The notes beneath the pieces are model-generated. The model did no database searches. It worked only from the letters and a program-made list of their open reading frames with translations, and had not been told where the DNA came from. Shown piece by piece: positions 8,233 to 16,308 of a stretch of 64,000 nucleotides of DNA. Made by a program: the position numbers and the translations under genes. Source of the stretch: Alphaproteobacteria bacterium (GTDB lineage: Bacteria > Pseudomonadota > Alphaproteobacteria > Rhizobiales > JAKIUO01); the NCBI GenBank assembly GCA_024280895.1, contig JAJRPI010000019.1:15556-79555 (forward strand), in the 5' to 3' direction. The number at the start of each line of letters is the position of its first letter. Positions within the stretch are counted from its first letter, which is position 1.

Positions 8233-8456
8233 TGGATTTCGTATATGTGCTTCTACCACTAGCACTTCTACTTGGATTTATTGGTCTTATGGCCTTTATG
8301 TGGACGTTGAAGTCGGGACAATATGACGATCTTGATGGCGCAGCCTGGCGCGCCATTATGGACGATGATCAAGAGCTCAACCCCAACTTCAAACAGCCGC
8401 CCAAAGACGAAAATAATCCACAGGCTCCTGTTGATAAACGCGATACTCAGGCTTGA
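8232..8456 (+). CDS. ccoS: cbb3 maturation protein CcoS/FixS
   Basis: TM segment then W..KSGQYDDLDG.A.R. Confidence 0.93.
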   Translation: MDFVYVLLPLALLLGFIGLMAFMWTLKSGQYDDLDGAAWRAIMDDDQELNPNFKQPPKDENNPQAPVDKRDTQA

Positions 8457-8578
8457 TCCCTGCCCGGCTATCAATTGCCTCTGGCGAAATTCTTATTTTC
8501 GTCTAATATAGGATCTATTGATAAGGCTCTACTCACCCTGTGTGAGGTGTTTCGATCGAGTAAGTCGTAGACATAATC

Positions 8579-8592
8579 TTGATCCTTAGCAA
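8579..8592 (+). promoter_or_regulatory. FixK/FNR-like box upstream of GUA-rich candidate RNA
   Basis: TTGAT-CCTT-AGCAA, fits TTG(A/C)-N6-(T/G)CAA. Confidence 0.4.
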
Positions 8593-8640
8593 TTATTTGG
8601 CTTTTAAGTGATTTCCGCAATTTCACTGACATCGCCGAAT

Positions 8641-8993
8641 ATTTCATGGAAGTGCACGCCATGAAAACCCAGTACCGCGTATCAGTATCAAATTGTTGTG
8701 TAAAATTGTAAGTCGCGTAAGTAATTGTAAGGGCTGTTTTGTGCGTACATTATTACGAACAGCCTGAGTAAACAGAGTGGTATTTGTACCCATCAGTACG
8801 TAACGTAAAACTGTTGTACTTATGTAGTCCGCGTATTTTAAGTGTAGTAGGTTGTGTTTGAAACGGTCTTTTAAGACTTGTTCAAGAGTTCGTATTGAAT
8901 TGTTCATGTAGTGGCATATAAAATATAATACCCACCCGCGCATGATATCTAATAAAAAGGACAGGGAACCGCGAACCCCTGTCCTTTTTTATT
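8641..8993 (+). ncRNA. Candidate GUA-repeat noncoding RNA (~350 nt)
   Basis: 5' hairpin TTTCATGG/CCATGAAA (8642-8666); 22 GTA triplets in 8672-8910; internal hairpins; intrinsic terminator at the 3' end; no credible ORF. Confidence 0.5.
8951..8993 (+). terminator. Intrinsic terminator (bidirectional-looking)
   Basis: AATAAAAAGGACAGGG-loop-CCCTGTCCTTTTTTATT. Confidence 0.8.
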
Positions 8994-9084
8994 TGCTCCA
9001 TTTTTCTTTTCTACAAATCCAGACATGTAATGTTTAATACTGCAAAACTCTGCACGCTCTTATTTCTTTGATGATCTGGAAAAG

Positions 9085-9117
9085 TAAAAAAAACCCCGCC
9101 ATAAAAGGCGGGGTTGT
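9085..9117 (-). terminator. Intrinsic terminator of minus-strand small transcript
   Basis: Minus strand AACCCCGCC-TTTTAT-GGCGGGGTTTTTTTT, with no annotated minus-strand gene upstream. Confidence 0.75.
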
Positions 9118-9158
9118 AAGTTGTGGTGCAAATGAATGCACCGGCTTGCGAGAGGAAG

Positions 9159-9245
9159 CTAGTCAAACAGAAAATTCTGCAGGATCGTCTGCCAGTAGAA
9201 CCACATAAACCGCAAAGGGTTGATGATGATTGAGGCAGTATCCAT
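9159..9245 (-). CDS. Possible 28-aa small hydrophobic/aromatic peptide
   Basis: MDTASIIINPLRFMWFYWQTILQNFLFD*, lying inside the predicted transcript; no clear Shine-Dalgarno. Confidence 0.3.
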   Translation of the reverse strand: MDTASIIINPLRFMWFYWQTILQNFLFD

Positions 9246-9296
9246 TGGGAAACCAGCAACCAGGACCAATATAATCAGAAGATCAAGTGATCCGAA

Positions 9297-9310
9297 ATGA
9301 CTTATATCAA
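9297..9310 (-). promoter_or_regulatory. FNR/FixK-type box
   Basis: Minus strand TTGAT-ATAA-GTCAT, the same half-sites as the ccoN box; TATATT at 9268-9273 gives -41.5 geometry. Confidence 0.55.
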
Positions 9311-9523
9311 TAGATCGCAATATTCGCAATCATTAATATTTGGATGTGACCTTTTGCGCATTCGGCGGCTTCCCTCTTCCAAAATAAGTCAGTTGGCCGA
9401 TGATACATTACAAATGAGATATAATGGATTATTGAAGCCACCCTTACCCTATTCGCCATAATTGAAACAACAAAATTGCAAAAACTCTGAACATTATACT
9501 AAAAAACCGGAGCCCTGACCGAA

Positions 9524-10765
9524 ATGCTTTCATATTACAAGATCTTTATCCATAGCTCGATGGTCGCTATATTGTTCTTTTCGCTGTCCGCGCCGCTCAT
9601 GGCAGCGCCAAATCCCAAGCACAAAGCAATTACCAGCAATCAATCTGACCCAAGAACAGGCGAGCTCGAATATGAACGCTCGAAACGCTTACTATCGGCC
9701 ATTGATGAGATATTAAAAGATGCCGCCACGATCCGTCAGGATGCCCGCAAGCTCCCCAGCAAACATGAGTTCTCTATTATCACCCCACCGTGGATCGAGA
9801 CTAGAGAAGACCGCCAGATCAAGGTCAACAAGCTGCTGGATGCTGCTCTTGAAATTGTAACTGAGGTTCCTATTGTCGAACTACAAAAAAAGCTACGCGG
9901 CAACCGCAGCAATATCAAAAAAATGGAAGATCAAATCGCCCTCTTGCGCGAAAAACAGCTCGACGCCCCAACCGACGCGTTCCTCCCCGGCTACATCACC
10001 GGTACGGTTGCCTCAATTGATGAGAAAATCATCGATATCAAAGCCAGAATTGCCGGCAACAAAAAACAGATTCTCAAGATAAAAAAGGAAATTTCCAACG
10101 GGTTGAAGAAAAGTGGCGTGAAGATCAAGGAAGCTCAGCTGGATATATTGCTTGGCAGCGTGATCGGTGGAGATCTCGTTAAACTTGTGGCAGCCTTTGA
10201 AGCCGCGCGGGCCATTAATGATCGTCTCAGCTTTTTAATGGATAAAAACGGTGAAACCCTGAGCGCCGCCCGGCGTTATTTCGCCATGCACGCGTCTTTA
10301 TTTGCTTTGCTCGTGCACGCACAAGAGCTGGTCCTTAACAAAATAGATACTGTCTATCTGCCTCGCCTTGGCGCCATTATCAAAGATATCCGGCAAGCCA
10401 GGGGCGAAACCCACCAACTGTTACGCGCTCGCAACCGCAACGATCAGCGCAAGATACTGCAGGCCAATCTCAAGTCGCAAACTTTTTCTGAAAAAGTCGC
10501 CAAGACTTATCGCAACTATCTTTTGACCCAGCGTGATCAAATGTCCAAAGCACGCCAGCGCACTCTCAAGGATCTGCGTATTGCCGACAATACTTATCTC
10601 ACAGTCGAAGCCAGTTTTCAGCTACGTTCCTTGATCAAGGATGCCAGTACCAGTTTTGAAGCGATCCGCAAACTAGAAGCGCCTGGGTTTGATAAAGTCT
10701 TTCGTAACAAAAACTTGAAGCGAGAGTTTGAAAACCTGACGAGCAAGTTGACACCTACATCATAA
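9524..10765 (+). CDS. Hypothetical exported helical/coiled-coil protein
   Basis: 413-aa ORF, signal-peptide-like N-terminus (..APLMA-AP), basic heptad-rich helical sequence, GGAG RBS; family not recognised. Confidence 0.8.
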   Translation: MLSYYKIFIHSSMVAILFFSLSAPLMAAPNPKHKAITSNQSDPRTGELEYERSKRLLSAIDEILKDAATIRQDARKLPSKHEFSIITPPWIETREDRQIKVNKLLDAALEIVTEVPIVELQKKLRGNRSNIKKMEDQIALLREKQLDAPTDAFLPGYITGTVASIDEKIIDIKARIAGNKKQILKIKKEISNGLKKSGVKIKEAQLDILLGSVIGGDLVKLVAAFEAARAINDRLSFLMDKNGETLSAARRYFAMHASLFALLVHAQELVLNKIDTVYLPRLGAIIKDIRQARGETHQLLRARNRNDQRKILQANLKSQTFSEKVAKTYRNYLLTQRDQMSKARQRTLKDLRIADNTYLTVEASFQLRSLIKDASTSFEAIRKLEAPGFDKVFRNKNLKREFENLTSKLTPTS

Positions 10766-10891: not shown

Positions 10892-12271
10892 TTATACTAG
10901 ATAGATTGCCGCGAGGCCAAGGAAGGCGAAAAAGCCAACAATATCTGTGACCGTCGTTACAAATACGCTGGAGGCCAGAGCTGGATCCACTTTGCGATAT
11001 TCGAGAAGCAGAGGGATCAAAATGCCGGCAATCCCAGCGACAAACATATTGACGATCATGGCGGCGGCAAGTACGCCCGACAAACGACTATTGCCAAACC
11101 AGAAATAGGCCACCAGCGCCATGAGCACGGCGAACACCAACCCGTTCAACAAGCCTACAAGCGTTTCACGCGTGATCACGCGCCCTGCATTTGCCGCTCC
11201 CAAATCACGTGTTGCAAGGGCGCGAACCGTTACCGTCATGGTTTGCGTGCCCGCGTTCCCCCCCATTGATGCAACGATCGGCATCAAGACTGCCAGAGCC
11301 ACCATCTGCTCAATGGTCGCATCGAACAGGCTGATAACATAAGAAGCGATGAGAGCGGTTATAAGGTTTATAAACAGCCACGAGAAGCGTCGTAGAGCCG
11401 TGCGCATGACCGTATCAGCAAGGGATTCATCCCCGACACCAGCCAGCAAAAATATATCTTCCTGCGCTTCCTCGGCCATAACCTCTACAATATCATCCAC
11501 CGTCACAACTCCGACAAGGCGGTGATCATCATCGACCACGGGCGCAGCCAGTAAATTATAGCGCTCAAATTGACGCGCCAACTCTTCCTGGTCCATTTCC
11601 ACATTGATCAAGTGCCGCTCATCATCCATCAATTTCTTAATCGGCGTATCAAGCGAAGTTCGCAGCAAATCATCAAGGCTAACCGTGCCCTTTAGATGTA
11701 GCGATGGTGTCGTGACAAAAATCTCGGAAAACTGATCCGGCAAGTTCGCTGTATCGCGCAAATGATCGATGGTTTGTTCAACCGTCCAGAATGTTGGAAC
11801 ATGCACAAATTTTTGGCGCATGAGCCGTCCGGCTGAATCGTCAGGATATAGTAACCCGCGGACAACGGCAGTGCGGACGTCATGGGGGACCTGATCGAGG
11901 ATTTTCTGGCGCTCTCCGGCCTCCAGATCTTCCAAAAGATAAACGGCATCGTCGGTATCAAGTTCTTCAACGGCCTCGGCAATCTGCTGATTGGGCAATT
12001 GCTCCACCAGCTCATCGCGAACGGCTTCCTCAACCTCCACCAGCGTAGCGGGATTGAGCTGCGAACCAATAGCTTCAACAAATGCAAAGCGCTCATTTGC
12101 TGACAGATGCTCCAACAGATCCGCGAGATCACTGTCGTGCAGCCCTTCTGAAAGGACACGCACATTGTCGAAATTCTCGTCCTCAATCGCAGAACGCACG
12201 GATTTCACGAAAGAAGCTAATAAGGCTCCCTCCATGTCGCGAATATATATATCTTGCGTTTGATTAGACAT
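10892..12271 (-). CDS. mgtE: Magnesium transporter MgtE
   Basis: Acidic N-domain, CBS pair, GGNAGTQ, VDPA..S..FVTTVTD..G; start moved to MSNQ. Confidence 0.95.
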   Translation of the reverse strand: MSNQTQDIYIRDMEGALLASFVKSVRSAIEDENFDNVRVLSEGLHDSDLADLLEHLSANERFAFVEAIGSQLNPATLVEVEEAVRDELVEQLPNQQIAEAVEELDTDDAVYLLEDLEAGERQKILDQVPHDVRTAVVRGLLYPDDSAGRLMRQKFVHVPTFWTVEQTIDHLRDTANLPDQFSEIFVTTPSLHLKGTVSLDDLLRTSLDTPIKKLMDDERHLINVEMDQEELARQFERYNLLAAPVVDDDHRLVGVVTVDDIVEVMAEEAQEDIFLLAGVGDESLADTVMRTALRRFSWLFINLITALIASYVISLFDATIEQMVALAVLMPIVASMGGNAGTQTMTVTVRALATRDLGAANAGRVITRETLVGLLNGLVFAVLMALVAYFWFGNSRLSGVLAAAMIVNMFVAGIAGILIPLLLEYRKVDPALASSVFVTTVTDIVGFFAFLGLAAIYLV

Positions 12272-12451
12272 ATCTACCCCGTGCGAAAACCCAACCACCC
12301 CCAACTGTTTGTAAATCATGCGCGCACAAATGCAACTGGTGAATAGACAACATTGTTAAAAGCCCCATTGACCGCCACCTATAGGGGAAGCTGTGCTTCT
12401 GACACCCGTTCCCAAGATCCCTCTAGGACTCAGACCACCGCATTGCATTTC

Positions 12452-14813: not shown

Positions 14814-16025
14814 TTAGAACTTGATGCGCATACCAGCAAGGATCTGCTGAACATCGCCATCTACGATATTATCATCTTCCCAGTTACGATACGCAACATA
14901 CAATTCTGTTGATGCTGAGTTGAAGTTCTGAACGATACCCAGACCCCACATGACAGTATCACCTGTGCTAACTGCATTACCATCGTCATAATCACCATAC
15001 TCACCATAGAGGCTTGTATTTCCAACGCCGAAGAAGTTCTGGCTGATGCCACCTTCTACATGCCAGAACTGACGATCACTGGTGTCAGCGGCGAGCGTGT
15101 TAACACCACCGTCAAGCTCAGTACCAGCAGCAAATGCGACGTTCAAACCGGTTGGCGTATGCATCAAGGTGACTGAACCCATGACATTTGAACCATCTAC
15201 AGCAAAGCCGCCTGAATTGGTAGAATCATCGGTGGTTGTATAACCGATACCTGCAGCGATACGGATTGGACCAAATTCTCCAGCGTAGCGAAGAGCCATA
15301 TCCCACAAATCGACGCCTGAGTCATCTGTCGCAATGTCATTTTGGTCAACCCATGCAACGGCGACGGTAAAGCCAGCGATTGTTGGTGAGACATAGGAGA
15401 TCAGGTTTTGAGCACTGCCCTGCTGAAGGTCATAGGAATTAATGCCAGCAACACCGTTCCAGCCATTACGACCAGCTGCATCGCCAGTGATGCCGCGACC
15501 GGCGAGAGAGATGTTAGCAACTCCATCGGTTGGAGCATATGTGAAACCAGTTGTGAGAGTACCCAGTTGAGCATGTCTCAAAAAGACAAAGTTTTGATCA
15601 ACATTTGTGGTTCTGGCAGTGTTAACTTGGCCAGCTGCTCCAATAGAACCTGTAAGACCACCTGCTGCACGGAGGCGCAGACGATATCCAGCTGTCCAGT
15701 TTGCAGACATTTTGGCGCTACCTGTGAACCAAACGCGAGATCTGGAGGGTCCATGACCGGCTGCATAGAATTCGTCACGGCCTGAGCCATCTTCGATCCA
15801 ACCAATGTCACGAGCGACCCAACCTGAAATTGTTAGTGAAACTCTGCGATTTCCCTTGCGAGCAGTTGTCGCTTCAAGGTCAGCTACGCGCTCTTCGAGA
15901 TCCGCACAGCAATCACCGCCCAAATCAGCAGCCATAGCTGGTGTAAGAGCCAAACCGCCGATAAACATACCTGCAGCGGCTACGATGGCCAGGCTGCTTG
16001 TTGACTTTAAAAGTCCCCCAATCAT
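14814..16025 (-). CDS. Outer-membrane porin, tandem paralog (copy 2)
   Basis: Near-identical N-terminal segment and internal blocks to copy 1; ends GMRIKF. Confidence 0.88.
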   Translation of the reverse strand: MIGGLLKSTSSLAIVAAAGMFIGGLALTPAMAADLGGDCCADLEERVADLEATTARKGNRRVSLTISGWVARDIGWIEDGSGRDEFYAAGHGPSRSRVWFTGSAKMSANWTAGYRLRLRAAGGLTGSIGAAGQVNTARTTNVDQNFVFLRHAQLGTLTTGFTYAPTDGVANISLAGRGITGDAAGRNGWNGVAGINSYDLQQGSAQNLISYVSPTIAGFTVAVAWVDQNDIATDDSGVDLWDMALRYAGEFGPIRIAAGIGYTTTDDSTNSGGFAVDGSNVMGSVTLMHTPTGLNVAFAAGTELDGGVNTLAADTSDRQFWHVEGGISQNFFGVGNTSLYGEYGDYDDGNAVSTGDTVMWGLGIVQNFNSASTELYVAYRNWEDDNIVDGDVQQILAGMRIKF

Positions 16026-16308
16026 ACTACTTCTCCACTTAACTTTAATTTTACGCTACGTTGACTGCATTACCCGAACTGACAAAACAACAACATAACT
16101 TTTTTAGTTACACAACCAGGCTGAGATACTAACAATCCCGTAGAGCCTGAACTTAGATGGGTTTCACCCCACAAACGAACTCTGAACCTTTTGATCCAAG
16201 AACCCGCCCCCTAATTGATTATGGGGCAAACCTTGATGACCTAAACTTGGCCCTTCCTGTTTGTTCCATTTCAGGATTAGACTATTGGCTCATAGCTGTA
16301 AACATTGA

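Follow-up and report, generated by a model that had tools for sequence, protein, structure and literature searches.

Few protein-titrating RNAs are known in bacteria: the titrated proteins are CsrA/RsmA, Hfq acting with Crc, and RNA polymerase, the latter by 6S RNA. CsrB, CsrC and RsmX, RsmY and RsmZ are stand-alone, terminated RNAs of a few hundred nucleotides. They carry many copies of one 3-nt word, GGA (ANGGA), mostly in hairpin loops, and the number of copies is kept while the intervening sequence drifts. CrcZ and CrcY are decoys of Hfq/Crc in Pseudomonas, and CrcZ uses A-rich motifs of the ARN type. TRAP and HutP bind arrays of NAG triplets, which are cis-acting leaders with regular spacing, ahead of the genes that they regulate. 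RRM domains bind short single-stranded words.

The literature that we found on bacterial RRM proteins covers Bacteroidota, cyanobacteria and Vibrio. The best-studied bacterial small RNAs that we found to be linked with a small single-RRM protein are GibS and the FopS RNAs of Bacteroides thetaiotaomicron, and the protein, RbpB, associates with small RNAs in vivo (PMC11697453). The FopS RNAs are base-pairing regulators of about 65–70 nt, with one RbpB site each and many copies per genome. According to a preprint, RbpB shifted a probe made of three GUAGGAUA repeats in vitro with a Kd of 5.1 µM and left a C/U-rich probe unshifted (bioRxiv 10.1101/2021.04.27.441718). The literature search found no GUA-motif small RNA with an RNA-binding protein for bacteria, and no GUA sponge sRNA for Alphaproteobacteria; the publications on "GUA-rich" RNA, judged by title, include none on bacteria.

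The window analyzed here is a stretch of 64,000 nucleotides from an uncultured genus of the Hyphomicrobiales. It contains, 3' of the fixGHIS genes, a GUA-rich element which an earlier note had singled out as a possible sponge RNA of the CsrB type with GUA instead of GGA. We read it as a new small RNA, similar in build to CsrB/RsmZ or CrcZ, in which the repeated word is GUA. Sequence comparison supports the idea of the earlier note that it is a discrete non-coding unit on the plus strand, made of a 5' hairpin, a GUA-dense body and an intrinsic terminator. The element is, with high confidence, real, conserved and non-coding, and its GUA count upheld by selection.

Architecture of the locus

The features of the element and of its upstream region, in the coordinates of the window, are the following.

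8504..8509, plus strand: candidate −10 box TAATAT of a putative upstream promoter; in 11/11 homologues the alignment has TAATAT here, with at most one base changed
8579..8592, plus strand: FixK-like box TTGATCCTTAGCAA; found at that place, with at most two mismatches, in 1/11 homologues
8596..8621, plus strand: conserved block TTTGGC/TTTGAC, 13 nt, CCGCA(A/T)T; CCGCA is invariant in 11/11 and TTTG(G/A)C near-invariant
8642..8666, plus strand: 5' hairpin with an 8-bp stem (arms 8642–8649 and 8659–8666) and the loop AAGUGCACG in most homologues
8672..8910, plus strand: GUA-dense body with 22 GUA, no GGA, low C and little stable structure
8741..8777, plus strand: internal hairpin GGGCUGUU...AACAGCCU (alignment columns 123–156); four of its six pairs are changed on both sides in some sequences
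8866..8879, plus strand: small hairpin GGUCU, loop UUUA, AGACU, in the MFE and centroid structures; its place is kept and its sequence varies by lineage
8904..8945, plus strand: invariant 3' hairpin UCAUGU.GUGG ... CCGCGCAUGA, preceded by a conserved GUA pair; 10 pairs unchanged in 10–11 of 11 sequences
8946..8953, plus strand: start of an A-rich single-stranded tract, UAUCUAAUAAAAAGG (about 8946–8960), just 5' of the terminator; near-invariant in 11/11
8954..8990, plus strand: intrinsic terminator with a 13-bp stem (8954–8966 and 8977–8989), a 10-nt loop and a U run

At every locus checked (six loci, in five of six genomes), fixI and fixS lie directly upstream of the element, and the only terminator-like site between fixS and the element is a weak one (8475–8487). 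A convergent terminator and a conserved minus-strand element are found downstream, and the next plus-strand gene is about 530 nt further. One of the genomes (G003) has two copies of the element, both of which precede the same genes, one for a 413-aa protein and one for MgtE; the contig of the second copy stops before the upstream side. The assembly of this genome, which is rated 6% contaminated, probably mixes two strains.

The RNA may be produced in several ways. If the upstream promoter is used, the RNA would be about 475 nt long. The conserved block at 8596..8621 is a candidate for a second promoter or for a regulator site; if it is a promoter, transcription would start near 8630 and yield an RNA of about 360 nt. 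Since fixI and fixS lie upstream and only the weak terminator-like site stands between them and the element, read-through of fixGHIS followed by processing is another possible route. The earlier note had proposed that the RNA is induced at low oxygen, because of a FixK-like box at 8579. The box is present, with one mismatch to TTGAT-N4-ATCAA, but a FixK-dependent promoter is not supported, because a single homologue has the box at this place; it is probably non-functional. Read-through from fixS could still tie the RNA to low-oxygen expression.

Both the 5' hairpin and the strong intrinsic terminator described in the earlier note are confirmed, with the pairing given above. A simple terminator scan, in which the loop is limited to 3–8 nt, misses the terminator. 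The covarying stems that the earlier note proposed to look for are found: the RNAalifold consensus of the 11 sequences has 45 pairs, 12 of which show compensatory changes. In the 5' hairpin, 6 of the 10 pairs of this consensus are changed on both sides in at least one of the 11 sequences, and the stretch just 3' of this hairpin is well conserved in nine of them. The terminator has one such change, from A-U to G-C, in a single sequence. The 3' hairpin is supported by sequence conservation and not by covariation, because all of its 10 pairs are unchanged in nearly every sequence. The small stems GGGCTGTT/AACAGCCT and GTCTT/AAGAC, which had been noticed before, are present and recur in the homologues with altered sequence. 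Where the hairpin at 8866..8879 stands, homologues have other complementary arms; this was read by eye, and the hairpin is absent from the RNAalifold consensus. The A-rich tract is a possible Hfq site. The predicted folding energy of the whole RNA equals that of shuffled sequences (−83 versus −81.4 ± 5.0 kcal/mol, z = −0.32). The body therefore appears loosely structured.

The element is non-coding: no reading frame is conserved across the homologues, and in that of genome G002 the frames reach 45 aa at most. The 99-aa minus-strand frame, which the earlier note had flagged as a possible gene, has no Pfam match; the frames differ between homologues, and are broken or shifted in the distant ones. 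As the earlier note foresaw, the Rfam scan gives no match at gathering score in the window. The 28 sub-threshold rows for 8400–9200 are at chance level, as are all the rows obtained at relaxed thresholds from six homologous loci. A match to GibS in the window (25.2 bits for a threshold of 115, E = 0.37) is at chance level too. In the region 8450–9050, TRF with a minimum score of 30 finds no tandem repeat, two short two-copy direct repeats are the only repeats of that kind, and the sole long inverted repeat is the terminator. A type III antitoxin RNA similar to ToxI, which consists of tandem direct repeats upstream of a toxin gene, was considered and rejected in view of the missing TRF array.

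GUA number and position across homologues

All of the 22 GTA start positions reported earlier for 8672–8910 (239 nt) were reproduced exactly, and so was the strand bias, with 22 GTA versus 6 TAC on the same strand. The earlier estimate of about 5 GTA from composition is close to the result of mononucleotide shuffles (5.5 ± 2.1, maximum 14, n = 5000). Shuffles which preserve the dinucleotides already give 11.9 ± 2.1 (maximum 19, n = 5000). The excess is thus partly an effect of the GT and TA dinucleotides and partly specific to the triplet. The next richest 239-nt stretch has 7 GTA within the window, and 13 across the 3,363,741-base genome on either strand. When all 64 trinucleotides are compared in 239-nt stretches genome-wide, the GTA cluster is the fourth most extreme outlier (z = 15.4); the three above it come from one GAC/ACG/CGA-rich stretch (C78:3966–3980), which looks like a tandem triplet repeat.

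A genome-wide scan by trinucleotide log-odds picked mostly AT-rich DNA and pointed to elements on the contigs C59 and C63. Two further non-coding, strand-biased GU/GUA-rich stretches lie in the genome, each conserved in four of five relatives.

Eleven homologues of the element were collected: seven in six genomes of one uncultured genus, and four on metagenome contigs. A BLAST search of 40 relatives finds the element in 5/5 genomes of the same genus and in 0/35 genomes of 35 other families of the order. A pattern of two invariant motifs gives 25 stretches in a species-genome collection, six of which are true and all from the same genus; none of the 19 false ones exceeds 12 GTA or TAC in its richest 239 nt. 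With the same pattern, four of 25 stretches from metagenome contigs are true, and the 260 nt upstream of the match contain 17–19 GTA in these four versus 1–8 in the 21 chance matches. A covariance model of the 3' domain recovers the element in 3/3 sampled genomes of the genus and in 0/147 other genomes of the order (99 other genera, with 25 candidates scored per genome and stricter filters). The element thus appears to be confined to one uncultured genus.

The near-5' hairpin, the invariant 3' hairpin and the terminator are retained in all 11 homologues. The body between them is poorly conserved: it has 210–272 nt, with 48–66% identity among the deeper lineages. Each of the 11 bodies nonetheless contains 13–21 GTA, for 1–7 TAC. 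This number exceeds that of mononucleotide shuffles in every homologue (z = 4.3–7.0). With dinucleotide shuffles z is 1.2–4.7, above 2 in 10/11, and the observed count is reached by 0 to 304 of 2000 shuffles, the highest value being that of the weakest homologue (z = 1.2). The GUA density is conserved in relatives, as the earlier note had expected, and the positions shift. Indeed, the 11-way alignment has 55 body columns with a GUA in at least one sequence: 32 of these columns have it in one or two sequences, and five in nine or more. The most distant homologue, whose body is 48% identical, has 21 GUA, and only five of them are aligned with a GUA of the window. Many copies of a motif, a number that is kept and positions that change are what is expected of a protein-decoy RNA, and this is what the 11 bodies show.

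GUA behaves as a word: of 282 TA, 187 come after a G, and of 388 GT, 187 come before an A. There is no preference in the flanks of the triplet, apart from a scarcity of G immediately 5' of it (5%). GGA is nearly absent, with 3 observed versus 29.5 expected in seven homologues (0.10 of expectation) and 0–1 per body in 11/11. Compared with a token shuffle, adjacent GUA triplets are rarer (6 versus 21.6) and start-to-start distances of 6 nt somewhat more common (23 versus 15.8), so that the GUA sites are spread out rather than clumped. The start-to-start distances range from 3 to beyond 30 nt, without a single period. By prediction, the triplets are no more exposed than other bases of the body (unpaired probability 0.41 versus 0.38), and they are not predicted in hairpin loops, including 7-nt loops.

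Related systems, candidate partner and candidate targets

The element resembles CsrB, CsrC and RsmX, RsmY and RsmZ in that it is a terminated unit, apparently of stand-alone design and a few hundred nucleotides long, with many copies of one 3-nt word. As in those RNAs, the number of copies is kept while the sequence between them drifts, and clusters of the word occur at the ribosome-binding sites of candidate targets. It differs from CsrB and RsmZ in its word, GUA, with GGA nearly absent, and in that the triplets are not predicted in hairpin loops. The CsrA gene (PF02599) is not found in the source genome, which is 98.38% complete, as the earlier note had expected for this group; the same search is positive in three control genomes. 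The element therefore fails the tests for membership in the CsrB/RsmZ family based on GGA, on CsrA and on Rfam, whose models of this family are matched neither at gathering score, nor among the 28 sub-threshold rows, nor in the six homologous loci. Its proposed design, a protein-titrating RNA with repeated short single-stranded motifs, is shared by CrcZ and CrcY, and the genome encodes Hfq (one gene, PF17209, 112.5 bits). However, the 11 bodies have fewer runs of three ARN triplets than dinucleotide shuffles (2 versus 7.1 ± 2.9), so the repeated (ARN)n motifs of a CrcZ-type RNA are missing.

TRAP and HutP, which the earlier note had invoked, have in common with the present case arrays of one triplet, recognized by a protein in their case. 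The analogy fails because the spacing of GUA is irregular and because no plus-strand gene to attenuate lies next to the terminator that closes the element; a leader with regularly spaced triplets directly upstream of a gene is not what is found. On the protein side RbpB is comparable: the G/U/A probe that it binds in vitro contains GUA (10.1101/2021.04.27.441718). Unlike the short, multicopy FopS RNAs with their single site, the RNA described here would be one long RNA with about 20 sites, in a different phylum.

The genome has one RRM_1 (PF00076) gene (C58:4998–5249). It encodes an 84-aa single-RRM protein, which scores 81.8 bits for a cut-off of 20.7 and carries the sequences IYAGNL and KGFGFVEM, which we take to be RNP2 and RNP1, respectively. 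Its best relatives in a PDB search are RRM proteins, which shows only that the RRM is typical. RRM_1 is found in 6/6 genomes of the genus and in none of those of the 35 other families of the order. Another sample from the order has it in 3/3 genomes of the genus and in 2/147 other genomes, both from one genus, whose RRM protein is clearly different in sequence (the sequences were compared unaligned). Class-wide, 32 of 400 other genomes have RRM_1, the closest of these proteins being 57% identical. The RNA and the RRM protein thus have the same distribution within the order. This co-occurrence is not a statistical association, because it amounts to one phylogenetic event, which many genus-specific genes would share.

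An independent RRM-positive genome (G101, 0.87 Mb, RRM 48% identical) was scanned whole, and no GUA-dense locus was found: the maximum is 11 GTA, versus 10 TAC, per 239 nt. The neighborhoods of RRM genes in other Alphaproteobacteria have no GUA-rich DNA in 29 of 30 loci, the exception being a (GTAA)10 microsatellite. The RRM gene has a conserved leader of its own, which is not GUA-rich. Among other RNA-binding proteins, ProQ is not found in the genome, and there are four cold-shock-domain matches. On the basis of co-occurrence, the 84-aa protein is the leading candidate for the partner of the RNA, although the full chain from RNA to partner to targets is unlikely.

Candidate targets were sought by looking for GUA clusters in 5' leaders, as the earlier note had suggested. 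The gene starts come from a crude ORF caller, which gives 3017 genes, 2999 of them with 60 nt upstream. Between −60 and +3, 19 of the 2999 starts have at least four GTA, for a Poisson expectation of 5.4 (a 3.5-fold excess), versus one start with at least four TAC. This excess is the largest among the non-homopolymer triplets of similar frequency. The GUA-rich leaders include those of a Porin_4 porin of this window (14814–16025, minus strand, with its leader at 16026–16100), a Flp pilin, a YkuD L,D-transpeptidase and small secreted proteins, and in several candidate targets GUA occurs on both sides of the Shine-Dalgarno sequence and of the start codon. The leader of the porin has 4–6 GTA in 5/5 orthologue leaders with upstream sequence, that of a paralogous porin one GTA in 4/4. 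The leader of a small secreted protein has 3–7 GTA in 6/6 orthologues, and the positions differ in distant species. Starts resembling signal peptides are found in 10 of the 19 genes with GUA-rich leaders, compared to 593/2999 overall. This enrichment is not GUA-specific, because genes with at least three TAC are enriched as well (9/23).

Interpretation and significance

We propose that the RNA is a decoy which titrates a GUA-binding protein, a reading to which we give a probability of roughly 0.45. In the proposed mechanism, in which transcription, protein binding, the identity of the partner and the regulon are all putative, a non-coding plus-strand RNA of about 360–475 nt would be made either independently, from a promoter of its own, or together with fixGHIS, as the 3' end of that transcript, and would be terminated at 8954–8990. 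The 5' hairpin, the invariant 3' hairpin and the terminator would stabilize it. Its loosely structured body would present about 13–22 GUA triplets as binding sites which titrate an RNA-binding protein, in the same way as the GGA of CsrB/RsmZ titrate CsrA. The best candidate for the titrated partner is the single-RRM protein specific to the genus. The same protein would bind the GUA clusters near the ribosome-binding sites of the porin, Flp pilin and L,D-transpeptidase mRNAs, and the level of the RNA would set the strength of the control on envelope-protein mRNAs. The complete version, in which an RNA of about 360 nt with about 20 GUA sequesters the RRM protein and thereby controls the translation of envelope proteins, would make this the first bacterial case of an RRM protein paired with a decoy RNA; taken as a whole, this version is doubtful.

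It is unlikely that the element is a trans-acting small RNA whose GUA triplets serve another purpose than RRM titration, as sites for Hfq, a cold-shock-domain protein or a ribonuclease, or that it acts by Hfq-dependent base pairing with conserved single-stranded seeds. Hfq and the cold-shock-domain matches are encoded in the genome, the A-rich tract and the U-tailed terminator are conserved in 11/11, the stretch after the 5' hairpin is well conserved in most sequences, and the link with RRM comes from a single lineage. Specific pairing with targets leaves unexplained a GUA number that is kept amid shifting positions, and the runs of ARN triplets, the word of the distal face of Hfq, are depleted. 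Both Hfq and cold-shock proteins are common across bacteria, as seen in control genomes, whereas the RNA is in one genus; this argument carries little weight, since the evolution of decoy RNAs is often lineage-specific. The position of fixI-fixS at the loci checked, with a weak terminator-like site as the only one before the element, and the putative status of the promoter of the element would fit a long 3' untranslated end of the fixGHIS operon, in which the GUA tract has a local role (mRNA stability or Rho resistance) or none. We consider this quite unlikely, as a passive 3' end would not hold 13–21 GUA through sequence turnover, and the invariant 42-nt hairpin and the conserved blocks upstream of the 5' hairpin would not be expected. 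Many small RNAs derive from 3' UTRs, and such an origin is compatible with a function in trans.

The triplets might also mimic the anticodon of tRNA-Tyr (U-GUA-A), whose anticodon loop is CUGUAAA, or be sites of GU-specific nucleases, the RNA being in that case the decoy of an anticodon-loop enzyme. UGUA, the most frequent 4-mer, makes up 60 of the 138 GUA of seven homologues, and UGUAA occurs 19 times. This is very improbable, since the base before GUA is U in 43% of cases only and A or C in 52%, and the triplets are not predicted in 7-nt hairpin loops. Hardly credible is an origin that does not involve RNA, be it a compositional accident, a decayed repeat, an array of protein sites on the DNA or a small protein gene on the minus strand. 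With the GT and TA content by itself, 11.9 GTA are expected, and the 99-aa frame exists in the window, but the GTA count is the genome-wide maximum, the density is conserved in all homologues, the strands differ 22 to 6, no tandem repeat is found, and the minus-strand frame has no Pfam match and is broken or shifted in distant homologues.

The impact of the decoy reading is limited by its scope, which is one uncultured genus in which in vivo work is impossible at present, and by functional steps that are all putative. A conserved RNA with a different word, in a host in which neither CsrA nor ProQ is found, points to an undescribed global post-transcriptional regulator. If the partner is the small RRM protein, the finding would give a concrete function and an RNA word to a class of bacterial proteins whose roles are under study. 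If the complete version with the RRM protein is true, the RNA and its partner would parallel the Csr/Rsm system in function and have arisen independently of it, with another protein fold and another RNA word.

Surroundings of the GUA RNA

The GUA RNA, a conserved GUA-dense non-coding RNA candidate on the plus strand downstream of fixGHIS, differs in GUA copy number between strains, since in one public sequencing run (X5) position 8678 of the window is followed by six inserted nucleotides, GTATCA, which duplicate a GUA-containing unit. The features that follow it in the window are:

9078-9330, minus strand: second conserved non-coding element, convergent to the GUA RNA
9115-9092, minus strand: terminator of the convergent element
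about 9340-9400 (plus-strand coordinates): conserved block upstream of the convergent element
9524-10765, plus strand: gene of a 413-aa protein whose start resembles a signal peptide
10892-12319, minus strand: MgtE gene, next after the 413-aa protein gene

The convergent element, a stretch of which contains CUUCCUCUCGCAAGCC, is kept in seven of the eight homologous loci examined and is absent from that of the related genome G001. The comparison with Rfam gave only sub-threshold rows for it: suhB/mmgR (25.3–28.5 bits, for a threshold of 41) and anti-hemB (24.6–27.7 bits, for a threshold of 49.5). It is probably an unclassified small RNA, and the conserved block upstream may be its promoter. The 413-aa protein, which has no match in Pfam, is encoded after the GUA RNA in the homologous loci examined, with the exception of the G001 locus.

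Triplet-rich stretches elsewhere in the genome

The top trinucleotide cluster of the source genome is a GAC/ACG/CGA-rich stretch (contig C78, 3966-4220) in which GAC occurs 45 times within 239 nt. It resembles a tandem repeat of a triplet and presumably represents consecutive Asp or Thr codons. Two other stretches are rich in GUA:

contig C59, 9220-9680 (620-1080 of the extracted locus L095), plus strand: GU- and GUA-rich non-coding stretch of ~450 nt
contig C63, 4660-4800 (locus L096), plus strand: GUA-rich stretch with nine GTA over about 130 nt

The C59 stretch, which contains 13–17 GTA versus 2–3 TAC (the same word on the opposite strand) in about 500 nt, has two terminators at its end and is kept in four of five relatives. 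It lies between two genes, a tail-completion gp17 gene that is itself unusually rich in AGT (23 AGT versus 1 ACT) and a phage tail-tube gene. The C63 stretch lies downstream of a gene coding for a lysine/alanine-repeat protein and ends with an intrinsic terminator. BLAST finds matches to it in 4/5 relatives, and these are due in part to the repeats in the lysine/alanine-repeat gene. The stretch may be either a 3' UTR or a small RNA with the same GUA word.

Leaders of the porin and RRM genes

16026-16100, minus strand of the window: 5' leader of the porin gene (14814-16025)
1200-1494 of locus L058, and orthologous loci L060-L064: leader (about 250 nt) of the RRM gene

The porin leader contains five GUA, two of which are located between the Shine-Dalgarno sequence and the AUG (GGAGAAGUAGUAUG), and it is conserved in all five orthologous leaders. 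The leader of a paralogous porin differs from it and contains one GUA.

The RRM gene codes for an 84-aa single-RRM protein, the candidate partner of the GUA RNA. In G094, an AT-rich alphaproteobacterial genome, a (GTAA)10 microsatellite (L093, 1971-2010) lies about 230 nt downstream of an RRM gene, which is probably a coincidence. Within the uncultured Hyphomicrobiales genus, the leader of the RRM gene hardly varies among the six genomes, and this near-invariance suggests that the gene may be regulated through its leader.
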